Shown: positions 4,116 through 62,804 of the stretch, piece after piece
How positions within the stretch are numbered: position 1 is the first letter of the stretch
How the letters are laid out: each line of letters opens with the position of its first letter
NCBI GenBank assembly: GCA_021203905.1
Contig: JAJQAG010000004.1
Coordinates: forward strand, 129,939-193,938
Length of the DNA: 64,000 nucleotides
From: Coprobacillus sp.
GTDB taxonomy: Bacteria; Bacillota_I; Bacilli_A; RFN20; CAG-826
Reading direction: 5' to 3'
Notes under the pieces: generated by a model
Told to the model about the DNA's origin: nothing
Databases searched by the model: none
Seen by the model: the letters and a program-made list of their open reading frames with translations, nothing else
Made by a program: the position numbers and the translations under genes

Positions 4116-4259
4116 TACTTGGCCTCCTTATTTTAAATTCACTAAGGACTCGCTATGAAGGTCGAGAAGAATCTCAGTTAGTAAACCTTTTCTAGGCGGT
4201 TGTAGCTAGTGAGGCTAAACAACGCTTGATACTATAACATAGTTATAATATGCCCGCAA
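4116..4259 (-). promoter_or_regulatory. rplU operon promoter plus about 110-nt structured leader (L21-leader-like)
   Basis: On the minus strand: TTGCGG (4259-4254), 17 nt, TATAGT (4236-4231). The untranslated leader contains complementary segments (ACTAAC.../...CTTAGT, CTCG...CGAG). Firmicutes are known to have an L21 leader at this position. I did not verify the structure. Confidence 0.45.
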
Positions 4260-8196: not shown

Positions 8197-9210
8197 TTAC
8201 TTTGTCCTCGCCCTATCAGAAGCTAAACGATAAGGATTCTCGTTCTTTGCGACTAAATGGATGGTGTCAACATGCTTATAGGCACGATGGACCGCTACTG
8301 GGAAAGCAAAGATTGAGAAGAGAGCGGAAACAAAGAACGCGGCAAGGAAAGCCACGATAACAAACAAGAGACTTACAAGGAAGAAGAATAATTTAATCGT
8401 AATTAAGAAGATTATTCCTCCTACTGACCAGCCAAAGATTACTCCTGGCATCCTCACAAATCCCCAGCTTGCAACCTCTGTAAACATCTCACCCACAAAG
8501 GTATTATCCACACCCACAGTGAAGACAAATGCAAGCATGACATACGCTCCGGCAATACTTCCGATGCAAAGTCCTAAGCAGAGACCGAGATTATCGTGCT
8601 CGGCAATACCGGCAACTAGCATCGCCACAAAGGTGATAGAAGCAAGGGTAATTGCCCAAGCCCAGGATCTCTTTCTTCTTCTTAGATGCTTTGATTTCTC
8701 ATTCGCAATCCAGTTTTCTCTTCTCTTCATGAAGCAATCGTCACAAAGAGTCCAACCTTTTCTTCCACCTTTCCCTGTGGTGGATTTCTTGACATGCATA
8801 GTTTCGCCTTCAAGAATTGGTTTTTGACAATCATCACAAACACCAATTTGTCTCTTTGTGAGTTGCTGATATAGCTCTTCATCAATGACTCTTGTGGGAG
8901 CACTTCCTTGTGGCGCCGCTTGACTAGTAGCGGGCGCACTTGTAGTTTGACCACTGCTCACAGGGCTTTCTCCTACAAGGGCACTTGCCGGTGATGTCGG
9001 TGTTACAGCTGTTTTTGTGGAGTATAAGTCATCAATCGTGACATTAAAAATTTTCGCGAGTTTCGCCACAGTATCGAGATCTGGTTCGCTATTACCAGTC
9101 TCCCATTTAGAAACCGCTTGTGTAGTTACGTAAAGCTGACTCGCGAGATCGCTCTGCGAGAGATTATGAAGCTTACGATAGTATTGGATTCTTTCCCCTA
9201 TCTGTGACAT
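8197..9210 (-). CDS. membrane-anchored XRE-family HTH regulator with zinc-ribbon and about 4 TM helices
   Basis: N-terminal HTH_3 signature (YYRKLHNLSQSDLASQLYVTTQAVSKWETGNSEPD), an S/P/A/T-rich linker, CDDC...CDDC, and a hydrophobic C-terminal half. Confidence 0.8.
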   Translation of the reverse strand: MSQIGERIQYYRKLHNLSQSDLASQLYVTTQAVSKWETGNSEPDLDTVAKLAKIFNVTIDDLYSTKTAVTPTSPASALVGESPVSSGQTTSAPATSQAAPQGSAPTRVIDEELYQQLTKRQIGVCDDCQKPILEGETMHVKKSTTGKGGRKGWTLCDDCFMKRRENWIANEKSKHLRRRKRSWAWAITLASITFVAMLVAGIAEHDNLGLCLGLCIGSIAGAYVMLAFVFTVGVDNTFVGEMFTEVASWGFVRMPGVIFGWSVGGIIFLITIKLFFFLVSLLFVIVAFLAAFFVSALFSIFAFPVAVHRAYKHVDTIHLVAKNENPYRLASDRARTK

Positions 9211-9280
9211 AACTCACCTCCTAGTTGATAGCATAAATATAAAGCGAAAGAGATAATAATGTAAATAATTTAACCTAAAA

Positions 9281-14608: not shown

Positions 14609-14685
14609 TGGCGCCCTCGAGGCGACTCGAACGCCTGACCCACAGCTTAGAAGGCTGTTGCTCTATCCAACTGAGCTACGAGGGC
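14609..14685 (-). tRNA. tRNA-Arg (anticodon UCU), CCA encoded
   Basis: I folded the cloverleaf by hand: acceptor GCCCTCG/CGAGGGC, D-arm GCTC..GAGC, anticodon stem ACAGC/GCTGT with loop CTTCTAA, T-arm AGGCG-TTCGAGT-CGCCT, discriminator G plus CCA. Confidence 0.93.
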
Positions 14686-55439: not shown

Positions 55440-56291
55440 ATGAAACAAGTAATCTCACTCGATATTGGTGGAACAAATTTACGGGCCGCTTTAGTGGATA
55501 GTGATTACCATATTCTTAATGTGGTAAGAATGCCAAATCGTTGCTATGGAGATAAGAAGAAATTCTATAGTAATGTTATTGAAATCATCCAACAACTAGA
55601 GCCAGATTTTGATGATGTCATCAATATCTCTTTAGGAGTTCCAGGAAGAGTAAGAAACGATGGTTTTATTGAAGGACTCGCTAATGTGGGAATTAGTGAT
55701 ATCAACCTGGTGAGAGTCTTAAATAGAAAGTTTCATAAAGATGTCTACATCCGTAATGATGCGGAGATGGGTCTTCTTGCGGAAGCCGTTTTAGGCGAAG
55801 GAAAAGGCTATGATGGAGTGTATTTCATCACCATTTCCACAGGAATTGGAGGCGCTTTTGCCTTTAAGGGGCACCTTAAAAACTATGGTAAAGAGATTGG
55901 TCATATCCCAGTCTTAATTGATGATAACTACTACGAGTTGGAAAAGATGTGCTCAGGAGAGGGGATTAAGAGACTTTGTAAACTATATGATTTAGATGTG
56001 AGCTCAGCGTCAGAATTCTTCTCGATGGTGAGAAGTAGTGAGAAGAAGTCTCTTGTGGTCTTTGAAAAGTGGCTTGAGATCTTCTCACGTCTCCTTCGTT
56101 ATGTTAAAAGAGTCTATAATCCAGATATCTTTACCTTTACTGGAGGAGTCTTTAAAAACAAGGATTTAATCTTTTCTAGATTAAAAGAAATGAATCCTGA
56201 CTTAAATATGGTAGAATGTTATTTTAGAGAGGACGCGGGACTTATCGGTTCTGCGGTCTACGGATTTAGTCAAATGGAGGAAGAAGAATGA
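55440..56291 (+). CDS. ROK-family sugar kinase (glucokinase-like)
   Basis: 283 aa with the N-terminal LDIGGTNLR ATPase motif and a GIGG motif. It lacks the CxCGxxGC zinc motif of classical ROK glucokinases, so the substrate is uncertain. Confidence 0.7.
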   Translation: MKQVISLDIGGTNLRAALVDSDYHILNVVRMPNRCYGDKKKFYSNVIEIIQQLEPDFDDVINISLGVPGRVRNDGFIEGLANVGISDINLVRVLNRKFHKDVYIRNDAEMGLLAEAVLGEGKGYDGVYFITISTGIGGAFAFKGHLKNYGKEIGHIPVLIDDNYYELEKMCSGEGIKRLCKLYDLDVSSASEFFSMVRSSEKKSLVVFEKWLEIFSRLLRYVKRVYNPDIFTFTGGVFKNKDLIFSRLKEMNPDLNMVECYFREDAGLIGSAVYGFSQMEEEE

Positions 56292-58057
56292 AAATAGTCT
56301 TACACGATGGAAGTATCAAAGAAGTTGATCAAAATTCCACAGAAGCTTTTAACACTCTAAATCACTCCACCGCTCACCTCCTTGCCGAGGCTGTTTTAGC
56401 CCTATATCCTGATGCAAAACTCTCGATAGGCCCTAGTATTGAAGAGGGCTTTTATTATGATATCGATTTTGGAGACACTCCCTTTAGCGAAGATGATTTA
56501 GCCCCAATTGAAAAGAAAATGAAAGAAATATCCGCGAGAGGATATGATATTAAATACATGACTATGACCAAAGCGGCGGCTTTGGAATACTTTAAAGACA
56601 ATCCTTATAAGGTGGAACTAATCACTAATCTCAGTGATGGGGATATTACCGCTTTTAGACAAAATGATTTTATAGATCTTTGTCGAGGACCACATGTCTT
56701 AAATAGTAACTTGATTAAGCACTTTAAGCTCACCTCTGTCGCCGGAGCATACTGGAGAGGTGACAGCCACAATAAACAACTTACAAGAATCTATGGCACC
56801 AGTCATTTTAGTGAAGAGTCTCTTCAAAACTACCTCACCCTTGTAGAGGAAAGAAGGAAGAGAGATCATCGAGTTCTTGGCAAACAACTCGATTTATTTA
56901 TGCTCTCGGAATACGGTCCTGGATTCCCCTTCTGGCTTCCTAACGGAATGGTAATTCGTACAGAAATCGAGAATTTAATCAAGGAAATGCTAAGAAAATA
57001 CGATTATCAGTTAATTTCCACACCAATTGTATTAAGTAAAGAATTATGGGAGACATCAGGTCATTGGGACCACTACCAAAAGAATATGTATCTCACTCAT
57101 GTCGATGAGAGAGAGTTTGCCATTAAACCAATGAACTGTCCTGGAGCCATCCTCGTCTATAACTCCACTCTCCACTCCTATCGAGATTTACCAGTGCGAT
57201 TAGCGGAGTTAGGACTAGATCATCGTCATGAAGCGAGTGGTGCTCTCAATGGTCTTTTTAGAGCGAGAGCCTTTACCCAAGATGATGCTCATATCTTTTG
57301 CACCAGTGCCCAGCTAAGGAGTGAAATCACCCGATGTGTGAAGTTCTTTGATGAAGTCTATTCTCTCTTCCATCTTGATTACACTGTGGAATTATCCACC
57401 CGACCAGAGAAAGATTATATCGGTTCCGTGAGTGTCTGGAATAAGAGTGAAAAAATTCTTGAAGACGCCATAAAGAAAACAGGAAAACCTTATGAAATCA
57501 ATCCTGGAGATGGAGCGTTCTATGGACCAAAACTCGACTTTAAAGTGAGAGATAGCATGAATCGAGTGTGGCAATGTGGCACTATTCAACTCGATATGAA
57601 TCTCCCTCATCGTTTTGGATGTAGTTATATTGACGCCAGCGGGAATAAGGTTGAACCCATTATGATTCATAGAGCGTGCCTTGGTTCTATCGAGAGATTT
57701 ATTGGGGTGCTCATCGAGCACTTCGCTGGAGCCTTCCCCCTTTGGCTCGCACCAATCCAAATAGCAATCCTTCCCGTTAATAACGAGTTCCATTTAAGAT
57801 ACGCAAAATCACTAAAGACAAGTTTAGAGAAACTTGGTTTTAGAGTGAGTCTTGATGAGAGCGAAGAGAAGCTTGGTTATCGTATGAGAAATGCTCAGAT
57901 GAAGAAAATTCCCTACACTATCGTTATCGGAGATAACGAGGTCACAAATAAAACCTTAACTTATCGCACATATAAGGATAAAGAACAGGTCACTGTTCCC
58001 GTTGGTGATTTTAAGAAGAAGATTAAAATCGAAAGAGACCAAAGAAAACTCAATTAA
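56288..58057 (+). CDS. thrS: threonine--tRNA ligase (TGS domain largely absent)
   Basis: 589 aa with the editing-domain HSTAHLLA, class II motifs and a C-terminal anticodon-binding domain. Only about 13 residues precede the region that follows the TGS domain in Bacillus ThrS. It has an ATGA overlap with the upstream gene. Confidence 0.96.
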   Translation: MKIVLHDGSIKEVDQNSTEAFNTLNHSTAHLLAEAVLALYPDAKLSIGPSIEEGFYYDIDFGDTPFSEDDLAPIEKKMKEISARGYDIKYMTMTKAAALEYFKDNPYKVELITNLSDGDITAFRQNDFIDLCRGPHVLNSNLIKHFKLTSVAGAYWRGDSHNKQLTRIYGTSHFSEESLQNYLTLVEERRKRDHRVLGKQLDLFMLSEYGPGFPFWLPNGMVIRTEIENLIKEMLRKYDYQLISTPIVLSKELWETSGHWDHYQKNMYLTHVDEREFAIKPMNCPGAILVYNSTLHSYRDLPVRLAELGLDHRHEASGALNGLFRARAFTQDDAHIFCTSAQLRSEITRCVKFFDEVYSLFHLDYTVELSTRPEKDYIGSVSVWNKSEKILEDAIKKTGKPYEINPGDGAFYGPKLDFKVRDSMNRVWQCGTIQLDMNLPHRFGCSYIDASGNKVEPIMIHRACLGSIERFIGVLIEHFAGAFPLWLAPIQIAILPVNNEFHLRYAKSLKTSLEKLGFRVSLDESEEKLGYRMRNAQMKKIPYTIVIGDNEVTNKTLTYRTYKDKEQVTVPVGDFKKKIKIERDQRKLN

Positions 58058-58083
58058 CATCACTTTCAAAGTGGGAGGAAAGA

Positions 58084-60000
58084 ATGCTTCAACAGATTAC
58101 TCTCTCTTGTCTATTACTTATCGGAAACATGGCGGGTCTCACTGCCTCTTTTTTTACAAATGATGACGAAATGTATAGAGAAGGGTGTTGCCTTATTGAT
58201 GCACCGTATGCGAGTTGCCTTGATAATGAAAGAGAGATTACGGGGGTTGATGAAACATACATTCTCACTGTAAGTGAAGAGGTTAACTCTCTTACCTATC
58301 GAGGAGAGGTGACACTCCTCGAGTATACGATTAAAGAGGGAACAGAAGTTACATGCCTCTTGACTGATTTTATTGATTTAGGAAATATCATCTTTGATTT
58401 TTATCATGATGAAGAGTACATCGCTTCCTACGCTTTGTACTTTGCTAGAGATGACGAAGGGGCCTTTTATTCAAGCGGGAGAAGCCTTGACTGTGCAAAA
58501 TCTCTCGCGGGTCAAGAACTCGGTTATGTTTTTCTTGCGAGTGAAGAAGAGCCAGAAGAAGAGTTAGAAAGCGAGACTTCAAGTGGTCACCGAACCCATG
58601 GAAAGATCTATGGCTACTTTAAGTGGATGGACGATGATGAACAGATTCATCCACTTGTGGGAGCAAAAGTAAAATTAAAAGTAAGAGGAAGCTTCTATAG
58701 TGAAACAACCTATACAGATGATAATGGTTACTACTGTTTTGAGTATAGTAATGTTTTCTACTATGGCTCAGGAATGGCAACAGTTACCTTAAGTTTAGAG
58801 AATGATCTTATTAAAGTTAAAAACTCAAATGTCTATGCCTATAAATACAAACTACAAAAAAGAGATGTTACCTATGAACTATCACAAACCTTCTCCCCTG
58901 AACAAGATGGTGATTTTGGAAAGGCGGCATCAATCTTTCAAGGATTCTATTGCTTTTCCAAAGTAGCGAAAGAATTTGACTACAAGAATAAATTATCTAA
59001 GATTTCCATTATTTATCCTTCTAGTCGGGTGATGTTAATGTCGTTCATGTGGGGAGAAAGAAAAATCGAGGTGGCCAACTATATAGAGAAAAGTGGCTAC
59101 CCAAAAGCCTATGCCTCGTGGGATTCATTTGGGCATGAATATGCTCATTTTGTATGCGCTCGCTACGGATTCTTTTCTTGGTCATCTTCTAATATAGCCC
59201 ACAACAGCATCATAAATCGTATTGAATTGATTATCTTAAATGATGGTGACTCCGCGAGAAAAGCAAAAAGAGTCTCCACTCGTTTGGCGTTTAATGAAGC
59301 CTGGGCCGCCACTTGGTCGGTATTAATTCAACAGTACTTTGATGATGAATGGAAAAGTGTCGCCACAGTGGGAGATAGTTGCTATACCAACTCTTCGGGA
59401 GTAGATGATGATTTTGATGACTATGACACTGACCACCCCGAAAGATATGGGGATAGTGAGGAGTTAGCTCTCTCTAAGATTCTCTATAAACTCGCCACTT
59501 TTGAAACCGATGAATATGATAAATTTTCCCTGGGATTTGAAGAGTTTTGGAGAATTTCTTACGAAAATAAGACAAAGTCTCTCTATGATTTTATCGATGC
59601 GATGTATGAGCAAGGATATAGTAAGAGTGATCTTGGACTTTTACTTGGTCAATTTAATGTCACCCCAAATAAAATCCAAATCACTAATTACTATTTAGAT
59701 ACCTGCCCTACATTAACTTGGTCAGCTTATATGGGAACAGCATACTTTAACTATAATCGTTTTGATATCTATTTCCTTGATGACAATGGAAACGAGATCC
59801 TAAAAAAGAAAGTCAAATCACATGGAGAAGTTACTTGTTCCTACACCTTAAAAGAAGAGGATTGGCAATTAATTCTCGATTCATGTCAAGAGTGCTTCTC
59901 TATCAATATGGTGGTGTGGCAAACAACTTATCGAGATACTGGGGGTTATTATACAGAAACCTTTAGTTATGATCTACCCACTCAATACTATTATCAATAA
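58084..60000 (+). CDS. secreted or anchored putative zinc metallopeptidase, paralogue 1 (638 aa)
   Basis: GGGAGG SD. It has an N-terminal hydrophobic signal/anchor, an acidic linker, and a carboxypeptidase-regulatory-like segment (HGKIYGYF...PLVGAKVKL...TDDNGYYCFEY). HEYAH lies at 59134-59148, with NEAW (Glu at 59296-59298) 50 residues later. Confidence 0.6.
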   Translation: MLQQITLSCLLLIGNMAGLTASFFTNDDEMYREGCCLIDAPYASCLDNEREITGVDETYILTVSEEVNSLTYRGEVTLLEYTIKEGTEVTCLLTDFIDLGNIIFDFYHDEEYIASYALYFARDDEGAFYSSGRSLDCAKSLAGQELGYVFLASEEEPEEELESETSSGHRTHGKIYGYFKWMDDDEQIHPLVGAKVKLKVRGSFYSETTYTDDNGYYCFEYSNVFYYGSGMATVTLSLENDLIKVKNSNVYAYKYKLQKRDVTYELSQTFSPEQDGDFGKAASIFQGFYCFSKVAKEFDYKNKLSKISIIYPSSRVMLMSFMWGERKIEVANYIEKSGYPKAYASWDSFGHEYAHFVCARYGFFSWSSSNIAHNSIINRIELIILNDGDSARKAKRVSTRLAFNEAWAATWSVLIQQYFDDEWKSVATVGDSCYTNSSGVDDDFDDYDTDHPERYGDSEELALSKILYKLATFETDEYDKFSLGFEEFWRISYENKTKSLYDFIDAMYEQGYSKSDLGLLLGQFNVTPNKIQITNYYLDTCPTLTWSAYMGTAYFNYNRFDIYFLDDNGNEILKKKVKSHGEVTCSYTLKEEDWQLILDSCQECFSINMVVWQTTYRDTGGYYTETFSYDLPTQYYYQ

Positions 60001-60070
60001 CCAATATTGCGAACAATATTGTTGAATATAATCTCTATAATTTTAGATAATATAAAGAGGAGTTATACGA

Positions 60071-62014
60071 TTGTTTCGTCAGTTATTGCTTTCTTGTCTT
60101 TTAGTGGTTAGTTCTCTCTCAGGGATGGTGACAACCTCTATTTTTACTAACTCCTACGAATACGATAGTGGTGATTACATTTGTGATGACTCTCCTTATG
60201 TGAGTTGCCAAGATAATGAGAGAGAAGTAACGAATAAAAAAGAATCCTATGTTTTTGTGGCGAGTCAAGAAATTGACAGTGTCAAATGGGAGGGAGAGGT
60301 CACCCTTAGCCACTACGAAATAAGAAATGAAAATGAAATGACTGCCATTGTCACTAATTATATCGATCAGGGAGAAATTACGTTCCACTTCTACTATCAA
60401 AAGGAATACGTCTGCTCCTATGCTTTATATTTTGCTTGTAGTGAAGATGGAACATTCTATTCCAGCGGAAGGACACTCGATTGCGCAAAAATGCTTGCGG
60501 ATCAACAAGTTAACTACACCTTTTTAAGTAATGATGAAGAAGAGGAAGATGAACTTGTCACTATAGAAGAGAGCACTTCCTTTGGTTTTGGAACCCATGG
60601 TAAGGTCTATGGGTGGTTCCACTGGTGTGGCGATGATGGTGAATCCTATCCCCTTGTAGGAGCGAGGGTCACCTTAAGAATTGGGGGGAGTTGGTATAGT
60701 CAAGTCACCCATACAGACGAAGATGGATATTATTGCTTTGAATATCAAAAGGTTTGGTATTTAGGAAGCGGTCGTCCAACAATCACTCTCCGCCTTCAAA
60801 ACGAGAAAATAAAAGTGAAATCTTCAGGAGTCTATGCCTATAAGTTTAAGATGGCGGAAAAAGACACGACGATGGAGTGTTCGCGAACCTTCACCATTGA
60901 AGAAGATGGAGATTTTGCCAAAGCCGCAGCTCTTTTTCAAGCGGGTTATCTCTATTCTAATTTTGCCTTTGAACATGACGAAGGTGGCATTCTCAAATCA
61001 TGTAAAATAAGATATCCTTCGAATTATGACACTATCTGTTATACCGAAAACATTCGAAGAATAAATATCCCTAATACCATTAATGAAAACTCACCCTCTT
61101 GTTACATGGCGTGGGATACAATTGGGCATGAGTATTGTCATCATGTCCAGGCTTGTCACAAAATAGATCATGTTAGTAAGCACCACAATTCTGCTTATAA
61201 CGACATCGACTATCTCATTGATCGATCTTATTCGACCATGAATAAAGTCAAACATGAGGGAACGACTCTCTCTCTCGATGAGGGATTTGCCACTTATTGG
61301 GGAGTGGTAGCCCAACAGTCCTTTGACCCTAGATGGTGGTATGTCCCCACAGTGGGAGATGCATCCTACACCTCAAGTGGGGGCGCCAATTATAGTTTAG
61401 ATGTCTATTACGATTCCCAAAGCCGTAACCTTGGAGATTGCCAAGAGAGAGCAATTGCTAGAATTCTATATAAGCTCACTTCCGATAAGATTGATACCTA
61501 TGACCGCTTTGCCCTTGGTTTTGATACCATCTGGGAACTCTATGAAAAATATTTACCCACCACCATGAGTGAGTTTATTAACATTCTCTATGAGCAAGGT
61601 TATGACAAATATGATCTTGGACTCTTGCTTGGTCAGTATGGTGTCACCCCGAGTAGCATGAACATCACAAATAATAGCTATGATACATGCCCTACATATA
61701 CGTGGTCGACCTCTTCTGGGAGTAAATACTTCCAATATAACGAATTTGACTTTGTCATCCTCTCTAATGAGGGAGAAGAGTTAATAAACCACCATTTCGT
61801 CTCCGATAATGATGAAGACACCTATTCTTACACTCTCAGTGAAGAAGAGTGGCAACTCATTCAGAATTCCACTTCCCAGTTGTACTATGCCTATCTGGTG
61901 ATGTGGCAAACTGATGATTTTGTCACCGGAGGTTACTATTCAAACTTATATACCTTCTATCTTCCAAGACGGATTGTGATTATTCCGAGACCCGGGGATC
62001 TGATTATCACTTAA
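60071..62014 (+). CDS. secreted or anchored putative zinc metallopeptidase, paralogue 2 (647 aa)
   Basis: TTG start with AAGAGGAG 8 nt upstream. It is collinear with paralogue 1. HEYCH lies at 61127-61141, with LDEGFATYW (Glu at 61280-61282) 47 residues later. Confidence 0.6.
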   Translation: MFRQLLLSCLLVVSSLSGMVTTSIFTNSYEYDSGDYICDDSPYVSCQDNEREVTNKKESYVFVASQEIDSVKWEGEVTLSHYEIRNENEMTAIVTNYIDQGEITFHFYYQKEYVCSYALYFACSEDGTFYSSGRTLDCAKMLADQQVNYTFLSNDEEEEDELVTIEESTSFGFGTHGKVYGWFHWCGDDGESYPLVGARVTLRIGGSWYSQVTHTDEDGYYCFEYQKVWYLGSGRPTITLRLQNEKIKVKSSGVYAYKFKMAEKDTTMECSRTFTIEEDGDFAKAAALFQAGYLYSNFAFEHDEGGILKSCKIRYPSNYDTICYTENIRRINIPNTINENSPSCYMAWDTIGHEYCHHVQACHKIDHVSKHHNSAYNDIDYLIDRSYSTMNKVKHEGTTLSLDEGFATYWGVVAQQSFDPRWWYVPTVGDASYTSSGGANYSLDVYYDSQSRNLGDCQERAIARILYKLTSDKIDTYDRFALGFDTIWELYEKYLPTTMSEFINILYEQGYDKYDLGLLLGQYGVTPSSMNITNNSYDTCPTYTWSTSSGSKYFQYNEFDFVILSNEGEELINHHFVSDNDEDTYSYTLSEEEWQLIQNSTSQLYYAYLVMWQTDDFVTGGYYSNLYTFYLPRRIVIIPRPGDLIIT

Positions 62015-62059: not shown

Positions 62060-62237
62060 TTGACACATTATTGTTAATAATGTAAACTAACAATCGCAAT
62101 AGATAGAAAGTAGAGGCACCCGCTTCTCACCAGATCGATAAATCGGTTGGTCAATCGCTATTATGAAATACTTACTTATATTCATAAGATGATTACGGGT
62201 GCGGCTACGCATCCGTTTTATTTAGGAAGGAGATGAT
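62060..62237 (+). promoter_or_regulatory. infC operon promoter and L20-leader-type attenuator
   Basis: Promoter is TTGACA (62060-62065), 17 nt, TAAACT (62083-62088). The terminator is ACGGGTGCG-GCTA-CGCATCCGT plus TTTTATTT (62195-62223). The upstream GCACCCG can pair with the terminator's 5' arm as an antiterminator. Firmicutes regulate this operon through L20. Confidence 0.7.
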
Positions 62238-62804
62238 ATTATCCCAGGCAATTACAATGGTGGTTCAAATAAGAATAGCAACCCACAGAAACCTAACAGA
62301 GATTTAGTAAATGAAGCTATCCACTTCTCCAAAGTCTTGGTCATTGGACCAGAAGGAGAAAGTTTAGGAGAGATGAGCGCTCAAGAGGCCCTAGATAAAG
62401 CCAGTGAGTATAACCTTGACTTATACTGTGTCGCCGCTAACGCTAATCCCCCAGTGTGTAAAATCTTAAATTACAATAAGTTCCGCTACGATCAGAAACG
62501 TAAGGAAAGAGACCAGAGAAAGAACCAGCACATTGTGGAGATAAAAGAGATTCAACTCACCCCTCAAATTGGAATCCATGATCTAGAAATCAAAGCCAAG
62601 AGAGCGAATGAATTCCTTCTTGATGGAAACCGCGTCAAGATTAGAGTGATGTTTAGGGGAAGACAACTATCCCATGTTGATGTGGGTCAAGAAACCTTGG
62701 ATAAATTTCTTGCCTTAGTAAGTGAAAATGGAGAGTTAGAAAAGGAGCCAGTTCTTGATGGAAGATGGCTCAATGGAGTAATTATTCCAAAAAAGAAGAA
62801 GTAA
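62238..62804 (+). CDS. infC: translation initiation factor IF-3, non-canonical ATT start
   Basis: The IF-3 homology (..LVNEAIHFSKVLVIGPEGE..) extends upstream of the track ORF. The frame is open from 62226. ATT at 62238 lies 5 nt after AGGAAGGAG. AUU starts are a known feature of infC. Confidence 0.9.
   Translation: MIPGNYNGGSNKNSNPQKPNRDLVNEAIHFSKVLVIGPEGESLGEMSAQEALDKASEYNLDLYCVAANANPPVCKILNYNKFRYDQKRKERDQRKNQHIVEIKEIQLTPQIGIHDLEIKAKRANEFLLDGNRVKIRVMFRGRQLSHVDVGQETLDKFLALVSENGELEKEPVLDGRWLNGVIIPKKKK

Follow-up and report, generated by a model that had tools for sequence, protein, structure and literature searches.

Gluzincin peptidases (clan MA(E)) share a two-lobed thermolysin-type fold that places an HExxH motif on the active-site helix and a Glu on a downstream helix. 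Among the extracellular gluzincins, the M60-like/Zmp glycoproteases (PF13402) of host-associated microbes carry flanking beta-sandwich binding modules (PMC3267712). A large, secreted, modular HExxH metalloprotease is also known from the gut Coprobacillaceae, namely the M64 IgA protease of Thomasclavelia (Clostridium) ramosa, which has a metzincin-like fold with a Met-turn (PMC12415215). Here we describe two adjacent genes of Coprobacillus sp., a member of the same bacterial family as the M64 host, in a 64,000-nucleotide (nt) stretch of assembly GCA_021203905.1 (contig JAJQAG010000004.1, positions 129,939 to 193,938 of the forward strand), hereafter the window; coordinates are those of the window and refer to its + strand unless marked otherwise. 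The open reading frames (ORFs) of paralogue 1 (58084..60000, ATG start, 638 amino acids, aa) and paralogue 2 (60071..62014, TTG start, 647 aa) match NCBI LUC31_03175 and LUC31_03180, respectively, residue for residue, and both are annotated there as hypothetical proteins. In our assessment, the products of both genes are probably multi-domain, zinc-dependent endopeptidases that are exported and belong to a new family within the thermolysin (MA/gluzincin) clan. Support for a peptidase comes from the predicted fold and from the conservation of the motif, and we infer zinc binding, catalysis, export, endo- rather than exopeptidase action and a role for a loop His, H373 (residue numbers are those of paralogue 1).

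The original prediction, which had pointed to the pair, could not place it in a named peptidase family, and our searches led to the same result. In place of MEROPS we searched Pfam-A, NCBIfam and PDB sequences, and "unnamed" is meant relative to these libraries. Neither Pfam-A nor NCBIfam gave a significant match to the two window proteins, and searches of PDB sequences with a single protein and with a 15-member profile returned nothing credible; the best PDB matches were OrfX2 (E=0.07) and a 48-residue stretch of CD630_05490 that matched by chance, and both were dismissed. A word-indexed homologue search recovered 15 proteins, none with Pfam domains or names. This strongly underestimated the size of the family: a profile search run exhaustively over 1.84 billion cluster representatives (clusters at 50% identity) found 2139 family clusters at E<=1e-3, 1509 at E<=1e-10 and 757 at E<=1e-30. 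Pfam scans of 7 and then 64 diverse members matched the catalytic region to no family.

The family resembles the M60-like/Zmp glycoproteases in combining a predicted extracellular gluzincin domain with beta-sandwich modules; no PF13402 match was found, and membership was rejected. Membership of M64 was rejected as well, there being no PF09471 match and a predicted fold nearest to the gluzincins. Fungalysin (M36) differs in domain context and taxonomic range, and the family has no Pfam Peptidase_M36 match. Thermolysin and pseudolysin (M4; PF01447 and PF02868) are only 11-14% identical to the family and differ in their flanking domains, and their Pfam models gave no match even at E<=10 in the window proteins, the 15 relatives or the 64 further relatives. 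True M4 proteins show an FTP/PepSY propeptide, whereas the family has a beta-sandwich N-terminal domain instead, and neither PF07504 nor PF03413 matched the window proteins or the 15 or 64 relatives.

Conserved residues of the predicted active site

The HExxH motif reads HEYAH in paralogue 1 (aa 351-355, 59134..59148), where H351 and H355 are the first two predicted zinc ligands and E352 the predicted general base, and HEYCH in paralogue 2 (aa 353-357, 61127..61141; H353, E354 and H357). The Glu predicted to be the third zinc ligand follows the second His by 50 and 47 residues, respectively: E405 (59296..59298) in the FNEAW segment of paralogue 1 (NEAW begins at aa 404) and E404 (61280..61282) in LDEGFATYW of paralogue 2 (DEGFATYW begins at aa 403). 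These positions are as the original prediction had given them, and the gluzincin-type signature that it read from them is supported by conservation across 161 aligned representatives, over which all residue counts were made. Homologues keep the motif, a check that the prediction had set for itself: H351, E352 and H355 are each found in 158/158 and E405 in 157/157, too consistently for the motif to have arisen by chance. D347 is equally invariant (158/158), and conservation is also high at Y353 (154 representatives), H356 (147), Q416 (153), E460 (153) and D479 (149). K395 is found in 144 representatives and replaced by Arg in 9, and D431 is found in 138 and replaced by Asn in 16. The resulting family signature is W-D-x-x-G-H-E-Y-x-H-H-x-Q ... 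H ... K ... (A)W-x-E-x-W-(P/A)-T ... Q ... TVGD-x-x-Y. The Cys residues of the N- and C-terminal domains, which had been listed as conserved, are so within the Coprobacillus group and not across the family.

An additional family-invariant His on an inserted loop was overlooked in the original prediction. This residue, H373 (59200..59202; 155/157), has its counterpart in H372 of paralogue 2 (61184..61186) by both pairwise and family alignment. It follows the second HExxH His at a tight distance of 14-18 residues (15 residues between them in 113/155), while the Glu lies anywhere from 36 to 71 residues beyond the second His, depending on the family member. With H373 conserved like E405 and more rigidly spaced, the same fold could hold a His-His-His metal site in which H373 is the third zinc ligand and E405 is second-shell or structural; in leishmanolysin (M8) the third His is likewise placed after a long insertion. 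We consider such a site unlikely, as the predicted fold is nearest to gluzincins and not metzincins, E405 and its surroundings align with the region of the thermolysin ligand E166, E405 lies on a confidently modelled helix (391-418) while H373 stands beside a low-confidence loop, and no Met-turn-type feature was found.

The placement of E405 as the gluzincin Glu draws on a profile comparison with thermolysin. We aligned 127 diverse family catalytic domains, using hhalign, to thermolysin alone (a sequence identical to PDB 1KEI) and to a shallow profile of 120 M4 proteins, all of which are at least 71% identical to thermolysin, so that little diversity was gained (effective number of sequences, Neff, 1.9). 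In local, low-mact mode the family was collinear with both targets over 187-198 columns (E=7e-3 for thermolysin and 1.2e-3 for the M4 profile, single-comparison values), and the alignment is consistent with the order of secondary-structure elements; global hhalign against thermolysin gave no such match. The family sequence WDVIGHEYGHH is paired with thermolysin IDVVAHELTHA (H142, E143, H146), AW-x-E-x-W with AINEAIS, which puts E405 on the zinc ligand E166, and TVGDxxYT with EIGEDVYT. D347, Q416 and D431 fall on D138, E177 and E190 of thermolysin, which we take to be ligands of its double calcium site.

A single gap of ~32 residues in thermolysin lies opposite the family segment that bears H373 and K395. 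This gap sits between the active-site helix and the Glu helix, and the long spacer is therefore an insertion and not another architecture. In M4 the Glu stands 19 residues past the second His in an NExxSD/ExxxD context, compared with 36-71 residues and ExxxT/S in the family, and the insertion with its invariant His and near-invariant Lys accounts for the difference in spacing. The original prediction had described the spacer as atypical; by hhalign it is better described as a ~30-residue insertion of variable length. Spacers of 35-45 residues are found in other gluzincins, such as anthrax lethal factor (M34) and the clostridial neurotoxins (M27).

The same alignment of representatives bears on the type of cleavage. 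The two proteins could be relatives of the M1 aminopeptidases (ERAP1, IRAP, APN, LTA4H), that is, exopeptidases that trim peptide N-termini for nutrition, and M1 enzymes do appear, together with GH2 enzymes, among the structural matches of the full-length model; however, these are only low-scoring multi-domain matches (template modelling score ~0.2) in an uninformative Foldseek search. The GxMEN motif expected upstream of HExxH is found in 0/161 representatives, the spacer is 36-71 residues and not 18, the C-terminal helical ERAP1_C domain is absent, and there is no Pfam Peptidase_M1 match. M1 membership was thus rejected, and we regard an aminopeptidase role as highly implausible. The lack of GxMEN, together with the closer match to M4 and M36, argues for endopeptidases rather than aminopeptidases.

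Predicted fold, accessory domains and export

An AlphaFold2 model of full-length paralogue 1, built from a 15-sequence alignment, reached a predicted local distance difference test (pLDDT) score of 84.9 and a predicted template modelling (pTM) score of 0.83; a separate model of aa 268-528 reached 85.4 and 0.87. The catalytic domain (aa 272-525, 58897..59658) is predicted to adopt a complete two-lobed thermolysin fold. It begins with a helix (277-297) and three strands, followed by the HExxH helix (346-361) and the loop with H373, and continues with a short helix (379-387), the E405 helix (391-418, pLDDT ~91), a hairpin and four helices. The domain-only model places the fold nearest to gluzincins, with M4 and M36 closest, ahead of M1.

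By analogy with thermolysin, H351 and H355 of the HEYxH motif and E405 on the next long helix would bind one catalytic zinc, and E352 would act as the general base, activating the water bound to the zinc. The ~30-residue insertion between the two helices would bring in the invariant H373 and the near-invariant K395. H373, which falls in the same inter-helix segment as Tyr157 of thermolysin, would most likely stabilise the transition state or tetrahedral intermediate. The flanking beta-sandwiches might serve to position the enzyme, or the substrate, extracellularly.

Three such beta-sandwiches surround the catalytic domain in the model. In paralogue 1, an N-terminal helix (2-16) and a disordered stretch precede the first, which is composed of modelled strands at aa 40-152 (58201..58539). 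Many representatives match the family profile only from position ~145-180 on and thus lack this domain, which is therefore an accessory module and not an obligatory propeptide. A low-confidence acidic linker follows (aa 153-166, 58540..58581; pLDDT <50 at aa 155-165), and the poly-acidic character noted earlier is indeed seen in both proteins (SEEEPEEELESE in paralogue 1, NDEEEEDELV in paralogue 2). The second beta-sandwich (aa 169-270, 58588..58893) is modelled as transthyretin/CarboxypepD_reg-like. A carboxypeptidase-regulatory-like signature had been proposed here; the beta-sandwich stands, whereas the PF13620 matches are sub-threshold (E=0.057 and 0.12; 14.2 and 13.2 bits vs the 32.3-bit cut-off), and the resemblance holds only at the level of fold. 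Sub-threshold signals in the Pfam-A/NCBIfam scan at aa 186-261 comprise CarboxypepD_reg, SdrD_B and DUF6795, and marginal transthyretin-like (PF01060) and CarboxypepD_reg (PF13620, PF13715) signals recur in the wider family. The third beta-sandwich, FN3/Ig-like, forms the C-terminus of the model (aa 530-638, 59671..59997).

Both proteins appear to be exported. As had been predicted, both paralogues begin with a hydrophobic segment (aa 1-22 of paralogue 1, MLQQITLSCLLLIGNMAGLTAS, 58084..58149; aa 1-23 of paralogue 2, 60071..60139). No other part of either protein is as hydrophobic (15-aa stretches were compared in paralogue 1), and the segment may be a cleaved Sec signal or an uncleaved signal-anchor. 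A hydrophobic N-terminal segment is found in 127/159 family representatives, and LPXTG motifs, C-terminal transmembrane segments and lipoboxes are essentially absent among the 159 relatives examined. Some long relatives carry fused BspA-type LRR_5 and Flg_new repeats, which are typical of cell-surface proteins. Judged from sequence, these three features together suggest export.

These fusions, the three beta-sandwich domains per protein and weak Foldseek matches to the adhesin UafA would also suit catalytically dead surface adhesins or binding proteins, that is, pseudo-proteases on a zincin scaffold, and some residues close to the active site of paralogue 1 differ from the family consensus. 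Pseudo-enzymes normally lose their catalytic residues, however, and here the residues of catalytic type (H, E, H, H, E) hardly vary in 161 diverse representatives and are intact in both window paralogues, which makes this explanation very improbable.

Several observations weigh against the assignment of the pair as exported zinc endopeptidases of the thermolysin clan. Statistical support for a sequence link to thermolysin is weak, with an hhalign probability of 5-20%. The Asp of the M4 ExxxD motif is replaced, the position four residues past the Glu being Thr in 134, Ser in 20 and Asp in only 1 of 157 representatives, and Ala in paralogue 1. Beside the active site, paralogue 1 further departs from near-invariant consensus positions (H356F, Q358C and W403F, besides the T409A just mentioned), and it may have lower activity or a different specificity. 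The loop bearing H373 is modelled with low confidence (pLDDT <50 at aa 366-371), and the n-region of the paralogue 1 signal is without a basic residue. Lastly, the literature was searched for the motif and for thermolysin-like proteases of these taxa and yielded nothing relevant and no experimental work.

Tandem duplication at the thrS/infC junction

The two paralogues are 45% identical (63% positives) over 620 aligned residues in BLASTP, with only 9 gaps, and are therefore collinear paralogues, as the original prediction had claimed; all of the conserved blocks that it listed are visible in this alignment. Its placement of the pair between thrS and infC likewise agrees with the TIGR00418 and TIGR00168 matches of the flanking genes. 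In the Coprobacillus lineage, the putative protease gene has undergone a tandem duplication at the thrS/infC junction. The same synteny is found in GCA_965325705.1 and two other related assemblies, which carry three paralogues of 640, 637 and 737 aa. Paralogue 1 shares 65% identity with the 640-aa gene, and paralogue 2 shares 60% with the third gene, of 737 aa. Together with the synteny, these identities show that the duplication is older than these lineages; copy number is still changing. The window has no copy of the middle (637-aa) paralogue, which is split in 2/3 of the related assemblies. It is intact at L002:3440-5353 and divided into 225 + 405 aa at L001:9929-11855 and L003:3400-5326, reflecting either a frameshift or pseudogene or an assembly error. 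A third family copy was looked for elsewhere in the 64-kb window and none was found.

Upstream, thrS (56288..58057; TIGR00418, 701 bits) ends 16 nt before a Shine-Dalgarno-like GGGAGGA (58073..58079), with the ATG of paralogue 1 4 nt further downstream; a second Shine-Dalgarno-like sequence, AAAGAGGAG (60054..60062), precedes the TTG of paralogue 2 by 8 nt. Downstream of the pair lie infC (TIGR00168, 182 bits), rpmI and rplT. Ahead of them is an L20-leader-like element (62102..62230; RF00558, E=4e-11), which a default Rfam scan of the window passed over since its score of 58.6 bits falls 0.1 bit under the 58.7-bit gathering score. The element contains a terminator-like hairpin (62195-62216), and a promoter-like TTGACA-17-TAAACT (62060-62088) stands between paralogue 2 and infC. 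With its own promoter-like site and leader-like RNA 5' of infC, the infC operon retains a separate control region, and the pair is positioned between thrS and the L20-leader of this operon.

The remaining genes of the window are core housekeeping genes (valS, lon, tig, uvrC, mutS2, ileS, pheT, glgP, glgB, dnaE, pfkA and a ROK kinase). GC content is uniform across the window (36-44%) and is 38-40% in the two paralogue genes, whose composition thus equals that of the rest and gives no sign of recent foreign origin. A "wall-less organism" had been proposed as the source; this is unsupported, as the source is a metagenome-assembled genome (MAG) of a Coprobacillus sp. (Erysipelotrichales, Bacillota) and nothing in the window points to wall loss. 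Some homologues do come from MAGs labelled Mollicutes, Acholeplasmatales or Anaeroplasma.

The start of infC is itself uncertain. Its frame is open from 62226 to 62804 (+), with no ATG, GTG or TTG before 62337. IF3 genes often start at AUU, and an ATT at 62238, 5 nt past AGGAAGGAGA, may be the start; the TIGR00168 match begins at residue 20 of the ATT-initiated translation. Unrelated to the protease pair, the whole-window Rfam scan also located an L21 leader (RF00559, 39.7 bits) at 4135-4211 (-) and a tRNA gene at 14612-14685 (-).

An unnamed family of gut and rumen Bacilli

A scan of one genome per species recovered 41 loci with family members, almost all of them in gut, rumen or faecal MAGs labelled Bacilli, Bacillales, Mollicutes, Erysipelotrichaceae, Acholeplasmatales, Anaeroplasma or Firmicutes. 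All named sources annotate the family members as hypothetical. This unnamed family, for which a zinc-protease function is predicted, thus occurs mainly in uncultured Bacilli of the gut and rumen. A few loci carry odd bin labels (L011, Escherichia coli; L020 and L021, Alistipes onderdonkii; L036, Prevotella sp.), while their family members are of the kind usual in Bacilli/Mollicutes MAGs. These 'cleanbin' records are probably mislabelled or contaminated; the E. coli-labelled locus encodes a lipoprotein identical to that of L015 ('uncultured Mollicutes').

Members vary outside the catalytic domain. About half of the representatives belong to a subfamily of ~830 aa (for example, P0006-P0011 and P0013) with an extra conserved C-terminal domain of ~190 aa, which shows the motifs RLRCGYIE..SYV.LSPR, IYG.RF and NKGR.C, has no Pfam match and is absent from both window paralogues. 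The only real Pfam matches among the scanned relatives are the accessory LRR_5 and Flg_new repeats of some long members, with repeat arrays in P0087 (2336 aa), P0099, P0107 and P0133. A partial phosphoglycerate-kinase match at the C-terminus of P0099 may be a gene-call fusion artefact.

The neighbours of family genes in other genomes raise the question of targets. Directly abutting the protease gene in 16/41 other loci is a predicted lipoprotein of ~200 aa, and another subgroup has two lipoprotein-like ORFs directly downstream. The family could on this basis comprise interbacterial or host-directed protease toxins with a dedicated lipoprotein partner that was lost in the Coprobacillus lineage. 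We consider this quite improbable: the ~200-aa lipoprotein was sought in the window and as a fused domain in family members and was absent from both, and the lipoproteins match no known family, leaving a partner role a guess. Moreover, such a role concerns the target and not the enzymology, and is compatible with zinc endopeptidases of the thermolysin clan. The ~200-aa lipoproteins have a signal and a lipobox (e.g., IAGC, LVSC, LIAC), lie 15-20 nt up- or downstream of the protease gene and have no Pfam match (L005-L018 and L021; e.g., L005:657-1277, L011:5677-6288, L004:7498-7998). The tandem lipoprotein-like ORFs (~230-255 aa), also without a Pfam match, are found 3' of the protease in L032, L034, L035, L037, L043 and L044 (e.g., L035:7776-8543 and 8543-9214).

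Overall, the familiar fold and chemistry make this an incremental addition to protease classification and not a new principle. More than 2000 sequence clusters, most from uncultured gut and rumen Bacilli, are without a name in Pfam, NCBIfam or PDB sequences, and the thermolysin-clan assignment provides an annotation handle for thousands of metagenomic proteins as well as a testable residue set (E352, H351, H355, E405 and H373). Secreted proteases of gut bacteria shape host-microbe contact, among them the IgA and mucin proteases of related taxa. As a tentative and doubtful extension, the proteins might constitute an unrecognised MEROPS-level thermolysin-fold family specific to host-associated Bacilli, often with reduced genomes (Erysipelotrichales and MAGs labelled Mollicutes, Acholeplasmatales or RF39-type). 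Such a family would be defined by an extended active-site motif, HEYxHH-x15-H-x20-50-E, with the loop His and Lys involved in metal binding or catalysis and with lipoprotein pairing in many lineages, the partner of which may be an inhibitor, immunity protein or anchor. If this is true, the family could supply uncultured gut Bacilli with major proteolytic effectors, hitherto invisible, that target host or dietary proteins.

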